Origin: a virus
Strand: one strand, 5' to 3'
Length of the DNA stretch: 40,367 bases
Virus record (IMG/VR): IMGVR_UViG_3300045988_046182
Location: 1 to 40,367 of that record
Part shown: positions 7,311 through 7,411 of the stretch, in pieces
Layout of the letters: each line of letters begins with the position of its first letter
Position numbering within the stretch: position 1 is the stretch's first letter
The notes under the pieces: model-generated
Seen by the model: the letters and a program-made list of their open reading frames with translations, nothing else
Databases searched by the model: none
Told to the model about the DNA's origin: nothing
Made by a program: the position numbers and the translations under genes

Positions 7311-7376
7311 AAAAAAAGAACACCGTGAAAGGGTGCCCTTTTTGCAAAACACTTTATCGTTTGGAGGTACTTTTAT
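7311..7376 (-). ncRNA. Candidate small RNA: consensus promoter to intrinsic terminator unit of about 65 nt
   Basis: TTGACA(7406-7411)-17-TATAAT(7383-7388), then about 65 nt containing CCUCC, then hairpin CACCGUGAAAGGGUG (7321-7335) plus a U7 run. No ORF or RBS. Confidence 0.35.
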
Positions 7377-7382
7377 ACTTAC

Positions 7383-7411
7383 ATTATAGCAAAAATAGCT
7401 TTACGTGTCAA
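7383..7411 (-). promoter_or_regulatory. Consensus sigma-A promoter TTGACA-17-TATAAT driving the candidate sRNA
   Basis: Perfect hexamers with a 17-nt spacer. Confidence 0.5.

Follow-up and report, generated by a model that had tools for sequence, protein, structure and literature searches.

A candidate small RNA gene with an anti-Shine-Dalgarno-like motif beside a probable replication origin in a Clostridium perfringens phage

What is made by a promoter that meets a terminator after some 65 nt, with no gene in between? The question is raised by a short interval (7411-7311, minus strand) in a viral sequence of 40,367 nt, referred to here in its entirety as the window. With a GC content of 30%, the window is a phiCP39-O/phiCP26F-type Clostridium perfringens siphophage. 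The interval is blank in current annotations of these phage genomes, and a search of the literature turned up no publication dealing with small RNAs (sRNAs), transcripts or promoters of phages of this type. A sequence-only reading had proposed a trans-acting sRNA that occludes Shine-Dalgarno (SD) sequences, for example so as to time the translation of late phage or host genes, or else a decoy. Judged from sequence and comparison with relatives, the promoter-terminator unit most likely makes a small RNA (RNA1); as the best, though tentative, reading we put forward RNA1 as a new sRNA that acts by base pairing through a C-rich anti-SD-type seed. The coordinates of the unit and its surroundings are given in Table 1.

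Table 1. Features of the RNA1 locus and its neighborhood (positions are those of the window).
Feature	Position	Strand	Details
RNA2 unit	9800-9907	-	Perfect promoter 9907-9879, predicted RNA of ~70 nt, hairpin 9828-9810 plus U9
VapE-like P-loop helicase or initiator gene	7876-9159	-	Pfam PF05272, E = 7e-41
Probable replication origin ori1	7470-7840		14 TGTAGTA copies around an AT-rich core (about 7500-7570)
Imperfect inverted repeat	7420-7441	-	GUGAAGGAGG-UUU-CCUCCUCAC; 8 nt upstream of the P1 -35 (about -43 to -64)
Promoter P1	7383-7411	-	TTGACA (-35, 7411-7406), 17 nt, TGcTATAAT (TG 7391-7390; -10 7388-7383); perfect sigma-A consensus plus extended -10
Predicted non-coding transcript RNA1	7311-7378	-	~62-68 nt; inferred start 7378-7376, 3' end in U run
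Optional weak stem-loop SL1	7346-7373	-	AAAA[G/A]UAC/GUGUUUU pairing; CUCCAAACGAUAAA in loop
UACCUCC anti-SD-like C-rich motif	7363-7369	-	~10 nt from RNA1 5' end; CCUCC at 7367-7363
Intrinsic terminator	7311-7343	-	Stem 7343-7332/7324-7313, loop 7331-7325, U7 7317-7311 (RNAfold)
Promoter P2	7275-7304	-	TTTACA, 18 nt, TGaTATAAT; 6 nt past terminator
62-aa ORF	7035-7223	-	First gene after P2 in window; accessory insertion, unlinked to RNA1

A promoter, a terminator and no gene between them

The perfect TTGACA-17-TATAAT promoter (P1) proposed from the sequence was recovered by a promoter scan, which found an extended -10 TG in addition. Perfect sites of this kind (spacer of 16 or 17 nt) number 12 in the 40-kb window, 11 of them on the gene strand, whereas a rough estimate from base composition predicts ~0.15; P1 is therefore unlikely to be a chance occurrence. 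Relatives differ at 5 of the 17 spacer positions but retain the -35, the -10 (TATAAT or TACAAT) and the TG, and the phiCP26F version is itself called by the scan with 11 of 12 consensus positions plus TG. Retention of the promoter despite a diverged spacer argues for selection on promoter activity, but it is silent on what that activity serves.

Just upstream of P1, and outside its transcript, is an imperfect inverted repeat. The hairpin earlier placed at 7422-7437 is real, but its extent is larger (Table 1): the plus-strand sequence is GTGAGGAGGAAACCTCCTTCAC, with a GGAGG-aaa-CCTCC core at 7424-7436. Loop variants aside, the repeat is kept in the window and in all 13 aligned relatives. Of just six CCTCC sites on the sense strand of the window, one falls within this repeat, which may serve as an operator or a structural element.

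The terminator, too, is where the sequence-only reading had it, ~65 nt after the promoter (its hairpin coordinates, 7321-7335, were approximately right), as RNAfold and the relatives both indicate. The hairpin has a 12-bp stem with the core GGGCACC/GGUGUUC and a 7-nt loop. An A5 tract precedes the stem and makes the terminator partly bidirectional in appearance. A consensus terminator scan of the window did not call the 7311-7343 hairpin, likely because some of the U run is taken up in pairing with the A5 tract; the homologous 13-bp terminator of phiCP26F was called by the same tool. Most aligned relatives (12 of 13) have GUUCU-AGUUA-AGAAC where the window has its inner stem and loop, ACC-CUUUCAC-GGU; the base of the stem (AAAAGGGC...GUUCUUUUUUU) and the U run are retained across the swap, and all variants still fold into a hairpin of 12-14 bp. 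That an unrelated sequence in the upper stem and loop is again self-complementary suggests selection for termination. Covariation analysis with RNAalifold counted only one compensatory pair; MAFFT misaligns the two hairpin types.

Beyond the terminator lies a second promoter, P2, which matches 11 of 12 consensus positions, has the TG and is almost invariant in relatives. P2 is the proper promoter of the operon formed by the 62-aa ORF, scaffold and capsid genes, and because it is downstream of the terminator P1 is not needed to drive that operon. The unit had been described as lying just upstream of the scaffold/capsid operon: Pfam matches to scaffold and major capsid proteins support this description, which nevertheless missed the intervening P2. 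A terminator ~6-15 nt upstream of a promoter is a general cassette of this genome (for example at 38443, 30644, 19373 and 9791).

Only the window, phiCP39-O and HMD-PC1 have the 62-aa ORF, for which there are just two close, near-identical homologues; in 11 aligned relatives it is absent and the UTR is joined directly to the scaffold ATG. As an Sm/Hfq-like partner of RNA1 it was considered and rejected: a Pfam LSM12 match (E = 1e-3) fell below the cut-off and structure prediction gave no confirmation. AlphaFold modeled it as a small beta protein (pLDDT 69); none of its PDB matches was significant, and an Sm fold was absent from the matches listed.

The predicted transcript and its C-rich motif

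That the transcript would contain neither an ORF nor a ribosome-binding site was confirmed: there are no minus-strand ORFs of at least 25 aa in 7224-7440, and no SD with a start codon is visible. A hidden peptide or antisense ORF was rejected for want of conservation. The analysis thus supports RNA1 as a predicted autonomous non-coding transcription unit of ~65 nt. The Rfam scan that the sequence-only reading had suggested as a check matched no family: none of 4227 models (including RsaE, RoxS, 6S and phage RNAs) reached its gathering threshold anywhere in the window, and at E values up to 10 over 7150-7950 nothing overlapped 7311-7411.

Overall the fold of the 67-nt RNA is unexceptional (minimum free energy (MFE) -13.4 kcal/mol, z = -1.55; RNAfold). 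The feature that stands out is the motif near its 5' end, in which ACCUCC is the same hexamer as the anti-SD core of 16S rRNA. The claim of an exposed CCUCC held: its predicted probability of being unpaired is 0.80-0.98 in the window variant, and in other sequence variants UACCUCC falls within the 14-nt loop of a weak stem. The heptamer is invariant in the window and in all 13 aligned relatives. It is also rare, with 6 sense-strand CCTCC against 68 GGAGG in the 40-kb window; the chance of a CCTCC in a 45-nt RNA body is ~0.002-0.006, a figure calculated post hoc. Of 12 sequence variants, 5 have the weak stem itself (SL1) as their MFE structure; its G/A variation preserves pairing (G-U or A-U). 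RNAalifold retains a small hairpin with one-sided changes only, and an alternative 5-bp hairpin would pair 7362-7358 with 7351-7347. SL1 is accordingly a weak candidate.

The unit is kept in 15 of 15 aligned relatives, and two IMG/VR contigs also carry its core. Conservation of the RNA1 body (97.9%) was rejected as evidence of function: the relatives are very close, the whole 2.8-kb region is ~97% identical among them, and a value at background is uninformative on constraint. A search for the exact core pattern in viral contigs, metagenomes and one genome per species returned the same phage group only, five metagenome matches in unrelated contexts being attributed to chance. Likewise, when 2.9 million viral contigs were scanned strictly for the design (perfect promoter, then TACCTCC, then T7), this lineage alone was returned. 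Judged by these genome, viral and metagenome scans, RNA1 is restricted to one narrow phage lineage. A 16-codon TTG ORF opposite RNA1 occurs in some relatives but not in others.

Targets were sought on both strands of the whole phage genome and in 56-64 translation-initiation regions (five genomes), with shuffled controls. The best duplexes at phage translation-initiation regions involve erf (-22.1 kcal/mol), where 15 contiguous base pairs (two of them G-U) cover the SD and AUG at 22582, and the gene starting at 31294 (-22.0 kcal/mol), which is covered in a similar manner. The erf energy was reached by 28% of controls in which CCUCC was preserved and the flanks shuffled, and the median energy was unshifted. 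The adjacent scaffold 5' UTR and the VapE initiation region had no special complementarity to RNA1 in this search. Sites at which RNA1 varies are G/A or U/C, so either base would still pair with an unchanging U or G in a target. Hence, of the earlier proposal of a trans-acting, SD-occluding sRNA, the autonomous non-coding unit and the predicted accessibility of CCUCC are supported; the target prediction proposed along with it yielded no phage target above the controls.

If RNA1 is a base-pairing sRNA, the following sequence of events can be envisaged. Host sigma-A RNA polymerase would start at the extended -10 promoter P1 and halt at the intrinsic terminator before P2, both steps being suggested by the sequence and its relatives. 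The 5' half of the product would be mostly single-stranded, or would form a weak stem presenting UACCUCC in its loop; the terminator hairpin would follow. It would most likely act in trans: the C-rich seed and the adjoining A/U-rich bases could pair with SDs of the type GGAGGUA(U/C)UUUU and block the 30S subunit. Host mRNAs are candidate targets, as are early phage genes such as erf. Such a mode of action would be that of the Firmicutes sRNAs with C-rich motifs, RsaE and RoxS. The Rsa sRNAs of Staphylococcus aureus have in common a C-rich motif, left unpaired, through which the SD is bound and formation of the initiation complex prevented (PMC2790875).

A second ORF-less unit, RNA2, which the sequence-only reading did not mention, is relevant here. 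Its predicted RNA carries unpaired UCUCC and CACCCC, the next promoter is at 9791, and the unit is kept in four other complete genomes with a variable promoter spacer. The window has 10 sense-strand occurrences of CCCC, and a rough estimate of the probability that both units carry UCCC, CCCC or CCUCC by chance is ~0.0015. There is no sequence homology between RNA1 and RNA2 (70% of shuffles score equally well). An extension of the sRNA reading, improbable in our estimation, is that RNA1 (7378-7311) and RNA2 (~9872-9800), which flank the helicase and origin, are one or two abundant anti-SD mimics (ACCUCC, UCUCC/CACCCC) that would mask host or early phage SDs of the type GGAGGUA(U)UUUU, or act as decoys for factors that recognize the 3' end of 16S rRNA.

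The sRNAs of phages of Gram-positive bacteria are almost unexplored, especially those of clostridial phages, which are considered for C. perfringens biocontrol. If RNA1 and RNA2 are made and act on SDs, control of infection would gain a post-transcriptional level; anti-SD mimicry, if true, would be a form of translation takeover undescribed for virulent phages of Gram-positive bacteria. RNA1 would then also be a compact and easily mutated model: ~65 nt, one promoter and one terminator.

An origin-linked promoter and other explanations

The surroundings of P1 suggest a different explanation, in which RNA1 has no function. The RNA1 unit abuts a region (7470-7840), likewise passed over in the sequence-only reading, that is probably a replication origin, as suggested by its repeats: copies of TGTAGTA are inverted on one side of the core and direct on the other, and the window contains 29 such copies against 6.9 expected, all but 3 of them in two clusters. 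This region, ori1, is directly downstream of the VapE-type gene, whose true start is probably the ATG at 9135, and which is followed by its own terminator (7872-7851); the protein is 99.8-100% identical in 15 of 15 matching records (11 distinct phages). The iteron array has a homologous counterpart (ori2) 16 kb away at 23519-23838, and a C. butyricum phage has the same layout with different iterons.

P1 may thus be an orphan or origin-linked promoter, and the terminator an insulator: a cassette of VapE gene, iteron origin and outward promoter may abut a cassette of terminator and P2, with the unit arising passively because P1 meets the terminator 65 nt on. Transcription starting beside the origin may aid its opening or firing and so account for the retention of P1 (a role of this kind has been proposed for transcriptional activation of ori-lambda and for gidA at oriC), with the terminator keeping early transcription off the capsid operon. 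All three putative iteron origins examined do end in a strong outward promoter 54-108 bp away (ori1 with P1, ori2 with P23411, and C. butyricum phage CB452P1), those of ori2 and CB452P1 simply driving genes. The terminator-then-promoter arrangement being usual in this genome also fits, as do the background level of conservation of the RNA1 body, the failure to find a specific phage target and a recombinant allele (L003) that combines the window-type promoter spacer with the other terminator type. However, a functionless transcript leaves the rare, accessible ACCUCC (~0.005 by chance) and the C-rich motifs of RNA2 unexplained. The perfect consensus and TG, retained despite spacer divergence, also count against it, and a 65-nt transcript would probably be poor at generating supercoiling. 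We regard this explanation, the main rival of the sRNA reading, as rather unlikely, though still a serious one. Were RNA1 a mere by-product, the locus would still show how terminator-promoter cassettes insulate transcription units, and both the VapE helicase/origin cassette within the structural genes and the duplicated iteron array would matter for annotation and engineering.

The order of strong promoter, short terminated transcript and late structural genes also recalls phage lambda, in which the strong, constitutive PR' immediately precedes the late genes and its RNA is terminated nearby, at tR'. By analogy with PR', 6S RNA and tR', RNA1 could be the terminated leader of a processive antitermination system, in which a constitutive P1 would ordinarily give the 65-nt RNA alone until a phage factor modifies polymerase at or near P1, possibly via the inverted repeat or the conserved leader, and permits read-through of this and later terminators into the 20-kb late operon. 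Further terminators within the downstream operon (such as 5419-5398, after the capsid gene) and the conserved inverted repeat abutting P1 are consistent with such a system, and by inspection the leader has -10-like hexamers (GAUAAA, UAAAGU) that could cause sigma-dependent pausing. Against it, a conserved P2 stands between terminator and operon, a separate promoter for which lambda PR' has no counterpart; read-through from P1 is thus unneeded and the late operon would not depend on it. Nor is the adjacent upstream gene Q-like: it encodes a VapE-type helicase rather than an antiterminator. The lambda 6S transcript is 194 nt long, as compared with ~65 nt for RNA1. Exchange of the terminator with an unchanged leader is compatible with processive antitermination but lends it no support, and we consider an antitermination leader improbable.

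Finally, a cis-acting or local element (an attenuator or riboswitch leader, an anti-SD that folds onto the downstream SD, an antisense RNA of the lambda oop or type I antitoxin kind, or an origin-tied primer) is very improbable: the unit is near ori1, and in a read-through RNA the CCUCC could pair with the downstream GGAGG (7238-7234), but the upper hairpin is replaced with the leader unchanged (and therefore no antiterminator pairing is conserved), Rfam returned no cis-regulatory match, P2 intervenes before the operon, the best duplex partners do not include the downstream UTR, and opposite RNA1 there is neither a conserved gene nor a plus-strand ORF with a ribosome-binding site. A role as primer was rejected, given that the phage has a CHC2 zinc-finger primase-like gene (17872-18840) and that RNA1 would be transcribed away from the origin.

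Relation to known systems

The setting of RNA1 has parallels in other mobile elements. Satellite phage P4 has a pair of iteron sites (ori and crr) for its alpha helicase, whereas SaPI origins lie 3' of rep. The window has a comparable arrangement, with a VapE/D5-type helicase gene followed by iterons that flank an AT-rich core and a second array 16 kb off; the likeness is one of context and not of RNA. The iteron sequence is unrelated to those of P4 and SaPIs, and in the window the predicted helicase/origin cassette is inside the structural gene block.

For a small RNA in such a position a close parallel in geometry is lambda oop, a 77-nt RNA that runs from promoter to terminator without an ORF, beside the origin and away from it, and that is antisense to the 3' end of cII. 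RNA1 would likewise be short, ORF-less, adjacent to a (here probable) origin and directed away from it. Unlike oop, it has no gene on the opposite strand, and the two sequences are unrelated.

In its own organization RNA1, as a candidate base-pairing sRNA, most resembles the C-rich sRNAs of Firmicutes (RsaE, other Rsa RNAs and RoxS of B. subtilis). It differs from them in matching no Rfam family, in carrying one CCUCC where they have repeated UCCC/CCCC loops, and in being encoded by a phage, apparently a virulent one, whereas they are encoded by the host. In silico and comparative analyses nevertheless indicate that, like these RNAs, it has its own promoter, an intrinsic terminator and no ORF. 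RNA1 also shares with them a motif that is complementary to the SD and predicted to be unpaired, for which a block of ribosome binding is the proposed mode of action (PMC2790875).

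The P1–RNA1 unit and its setting

The window carries, in reverse-complement orientation, a Clostridium perfringens siphophage of the phiCP39-O/phiCP26F group: 15 GenBank records, among them 11 distinct phages, match it at 92–98% identity, and virtually all genes are carried on the minus strand. The order of features around the unit, 5′ to 3′ on that strand, is given in the table.

Features surrounding the P1–RNA1 unit, in minus-strand order
Feature	Position	Strand	Details
Portal	12729–14084	−	
Minor head protein	11166–12386	−	
HNH endonuclease	10198–10875	−	
Run (1 kb) of small promoter/terminator units	about 9907–9160	−	
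RNA2 unit (second ORF-less unit)	9907–9800	−	perfect promoter 9907–9879; RNA ~70 nt; hairpin 9828–9810 + U9; next promoter 9791
VapE-like P-loop helicase gene	7876–9159	−	Pfam PF05272, E = 7e-41
Terminator of VapE-like gene	7872–7851	−	terminator scan
AT-rich non-coding region, 400 bp	between VapE-like gene and P1–RNA1 unit		
ori1 (iteron array)	7470–7840		
Inverted repeat	7420–7441		GTGAGGAGG-AAA-CCTCCTTCAC
P1 (promoter)	7411–7383	−	TTGACA 7411–7406; spacer 17 nt; TATAAT 7388–7383; extended −10 TG 7391–7390
RNA1 (predicted transcript)	7378–7311	−	CCUCC 7367–7363; terminator stem 7343–7332/7324–7313; U7 7317–7311
P2 (promoter)	7304–7275	−	TTTACA 7304–7299; 18 nt; TGaTATAAT (−10 at 7280–7275)
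62-aa ORF	7035–7223	−	
Scaffold protein	6484–7035	−	PF06810
Major capsid protein	5467–6468	−	PF17236

A sequence-only reading had described a perfect promoter followed, some 65 nt on, by a terminator hairpin with a U7 run, enclosing neither ribosome-binding site nor ORF but an exposed CCUCC. Each of these elements was recovered. P1 matches the consensus exactly and has in addition an extended −10; the terminator is predicted by RNAfold to be a 12-bp stem with a 7-nt loop followed by the remainder of the U run; no minus-strand ORF of at least 25 aa lies in 7224–7440, nor does the unit have a Shine-Dalgarno (SD) sequence with a start codon; and the CCUCC has a predicted unpaired probability of 0.80–0.98. 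Past the P1 −10 the minus strand reads GUAAGUAUAAAAGUACCUCCAAACGAUAAAGUGUUUUGC-AAAAAGGGCACC-CUUUCAC-GGUGUUCUUUUU-UU, and a folding energy of −13.4 kcal/mol (z = −1.55) is predicted for the 67-nt RNA. The hairpin is absent from the list returned by a consensus terminator scan of the window, likely because most of the U run is paired with the A5 tract upstream; in phiCP26F the same scan calls P1, P2 and the homologous hairpin (13 pairs plus T run). A hairpin upstream of P1, placed by the same reading at 7422–7437, is real and somewhat longer: an imperfect, conserved inverted repeat 8 nt upstream of the −35, which occurs once in the genome and may be a P1 operator or a boundary of the origin.

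Sites of the P1 type are not noise: the window holds 12 perfect TTGACA-16/17-TATAAT matches, 11 of them on the coding strand, against about 0.15 expected from base composition by our estimate. The P1–RNA1 unit looks like a real small transcription unit absent from earlier annotation, and a candidate phage-encoded sRNA. Eight perfect promoters (38443, 30644, 23411, 22640, 19373, 17479 and 9791 on the minus strand; 9342 on the plus strand) share a common spacer and a downstream box, TTGACAAGATAATTAAGTnnGnTATAATtaaaTTGTAAA, and most lie 6–15 nt past a terminator; they may be a family of promoter cassettes that share an operator; P1 is not a member.

P2, also a strong promoter, begins six bases past the U run; its 5′ UTR, about 50 nt long, carries a GGAGG ribosome-binding site ahead of the 62-aa ORF. 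The scaffold/capsid operon therefore has its own promoter and does not need P1 to drive it. The 62-aa ORF itself is restricted to the window, phiCP39-O and HMD-PC1, with only two homologues among 5.8 billion proteins; its identification as an LSM12 protein was not borne out (the Pfam match is weak, and AlphaFold gives a small beta protein with no significant PDB match).

Conservation and occurrence

The region was aligned from 13 relatives (15 in total once two metagenome contigs are counted), and P1, RNA1, the terminator and P2 are kept in all of those aligned. Two short patches set apart two forms of allele. The first is the P1 spacer, with 5 of its 17 positions changed; the −35 and the TG are preserved, as is the −10, either TATAAT or TACAAT. 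The second is the upper part of the terminator, which reads GGGC-ACC-CUUUCAC-GGU-GUUC in the window and in phiCP39-O, and GGGC-GUUCU-AGUUA-AGAAC-GUUC in the others: inner stem and loop are unrelated, yet all variants fold into a 12–14-bp hairpin followed by U6–U9. Of all the evidence, this hairpin swap argues most strongly that termination at the end of RNA1 is probably under selection. The formal covariation count is small because MAFFT/RNAalifold failed to bring both forms of the hairpin into register. In one contig (L003) the spacer is that of the window and the terminator that of the other form; recombination therefore occurs inside the unit. A 30-nt core, UACCUCCAAACGAUAAAGUGUUUUGCAAAA, is nearly invariant, but since the surrounding 2.8 kb is itself about 97% identical among relatives, this is uninformative on constraint within the RNA body.

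Exact searches with the core led to no phages beyond this lineage, with 4 contigs in IMG/VR and 2 in metagenomes (where five further matches are chance), and to nothing in one genome per bacterial species. A strict design (perfect promoter, TACCTCC within 12–22 nt, T7 within 20–50 nt) likewise retrieved only the phiCP39-O/phiCP26F lineage among viral contigs. The Rfam scan that had been suggested gave no match anywhere in the window at the gathering threshold and, at E up to 10, none overlapping the unit. No paper on the transcripts or on sRNAs of the group was found; one comparative study describes its transcriptional regulation as unknown.

Between the minor head gene and VapE lies a variable hot spot (window 9160–10900, compared with 23509–24926 of XP41-N3, L029, and with CPQ4, L027): the window, phiCP39-O and phiCP26F carry the HNH endonuclease, XP41-N3 a PAPS-reductase-like gene and others neither. 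Within 9342–9791 two very small genes converge, each served by a perfect promoter and a terminator of its own; they encode a predicted membrane-spanning peptide of 45–50 aa (9594–9746, minus) and a basic 41-aa peptide (9402–9527), the sole plus-strand gene of the phage; the pair could be toxin/antitoxin-like or an exclusion moron. The large terminase is uninterrupted in the window (14304–15701); in CPQ4 (30444–32520) it is annotated as two pieces with a 'homing endonuclease' ORF between them, which suggests an intron or intein-type insertion absent from the window. Finally, an 815-aa protein (2906–5353), its gene differing in length among relatives, has a BppU N-terminal (baseplate upper protein) domain, an odd occupant of the interval between the major capsid and head-completion genes.

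A helicase gene and duplicated origin-like arrays

The non-coding region upstream of P1 probably serves as a replication origin. The window contains 29 copies of TGTAGTA where 6.9 are expected; 14 of them lie at 7473–7836, inverted to one side of an AT-rich core and in direct orientation to the other; this array, ori1, lies directly 3′ of the VapE-type gene. A layout of helicase followed by iterons is known for SaPI origins, and for the P4 alpha helicase with ori and crr. The nearest non-perfringens VapE homologue (47% identity), in C. butyricum phage CB452P1, is followed by iterons of other sequence, an AT-rich core and a promoter that points outward and simply drives the next gene. A second array, ori2 (23519–23838), lies 16 kb away in the early recombination/replication region, is 81% identical to ori1 over about 350 bp and is followed by a perfect outward promoter (23411–23384); both arrays are present in four other complete genomes.

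The VapE-like protein is 99.8–100% identical across all 15 matching records, from 11 distinct phages, while neighbouring DNA differs by 3–10%. It is annotated as integrase, DNA helicase or P-loop ATPase depending on the record, and its gene sits among head genes, apart from the primase-like, SSB and Erf genes. The combination of helicase gene and duplicated origin-like arrays deserves at least as much notice as RNA1.

C-rich motifs and the possible function of RNA1

The sense strand is only 11% C, and CCTCC occurs 6 times in 40 kb as against 68 for GGAGG: one copy is in RNA1, one in the inverted repeat adjacent to P1 and two are antisense to the only plus-strand gene. The chance of a CCUCC within the 45-nt body is about 0.002–0.006, a post hoc figure. 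In several RNA1 variants a 5′ A-rich run pairs with GUGUUUU, placing CUCCAAACGAUAAA in a 14-nt loop; the stem is weak, and a G/A polymorphism preserves the pairing. RNA2 has no sequence relation to RNA1 and is conserved in four other genomes though its promoter spacer varies; it carries predicted unpaired UCUCC and CACCCC (the sense strand has just 10 CCCC), and a 31-codon plus-strand ORF opposite it is not conserved. That two independent ORF-less units carry such rare motifs is the main argument that both are C-rich-seed sRNA genes rather than accidents. Our tentative preference is for RNA1 as an autonomous sRNA of ~65 nt, its anatomy as predicted here from sequence and comparison with relatives, which would act in trans through a C-rich anti-SD seed.

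Target prediction against phage initiation regions, also proposed at the outset, singled out no phage target. A genome-wide duplex scan of both strands gave the self-antisense site as sole outlier, and neither the adjacent scaffold UTR nor the VapE initiation region was favoured. The best of 64 SD-preceded starts in the window were erf (start 22582, −22.1 kcal/mol; GGAGGUAUUUUUAUG, 15 contiguous pairs, two of them G-U) and the gene starting at 31294 (−22.0). Among control RNAs shuffled except for CCUCC, 28% equalled the observed best and the median energy was unchanged, so that the pairing is generic to SDs of the GGAGGUAUU type; four other genomes with their own RNA1 variants gave similar, not identical, rankings.

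The main alternative, somewhat less likely, is that the RNA is functionless, P1 being the outward promoter of the VapE/origin cassette, running into the standard terminator-then-promoter cassette of this phage, and perhaps retained since transcription next to an origin helps it to fire. The outward promoters at ori2 and in CB452P1 parallel P1 at ori1, and terminator-then-promoter cassettes recur at 38443, 30644, 19373 and 9791; this alternative leaves the rare C-rich motifs unexplained. A leader of the lambda PR′/6S kind, for processive antitermination into the late operon, is improbable and weakened by the conserved P2. A cis attenuator, cis anti-SD element, antisense RNA or primer is very improbable indeed, given the hairpin swap with unchanged leader, the intervening P2, the fact that no gene lies on the other strand, and the presence of a CHC2 primase-like gene at another site (17872–18840). 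Other functions, such as protein binding, take up the remaining probability.

The Rsa sRNAs of S. aureus have in common an unpaired C-rich motif that binds the SD and blocks formation of the initiation complex (Geissmann et al. 2009, PMC2790875). In silico, RNA1 has both the independent unit and the unpaired C-rich motif of the C-rich-seed class, and the Firmicutes sRNAs of the RsaE/RoxS type are functionally its closest counterparts. In its layout RNA1 most resembles lambda oop, a short terminated RNA that lies next to an origin, and the lambda PR′ 6S transcript. The paired arrays, ori1 3′ of VapE in the structural block and ori2 in the early region, recall ori and crr of P4.
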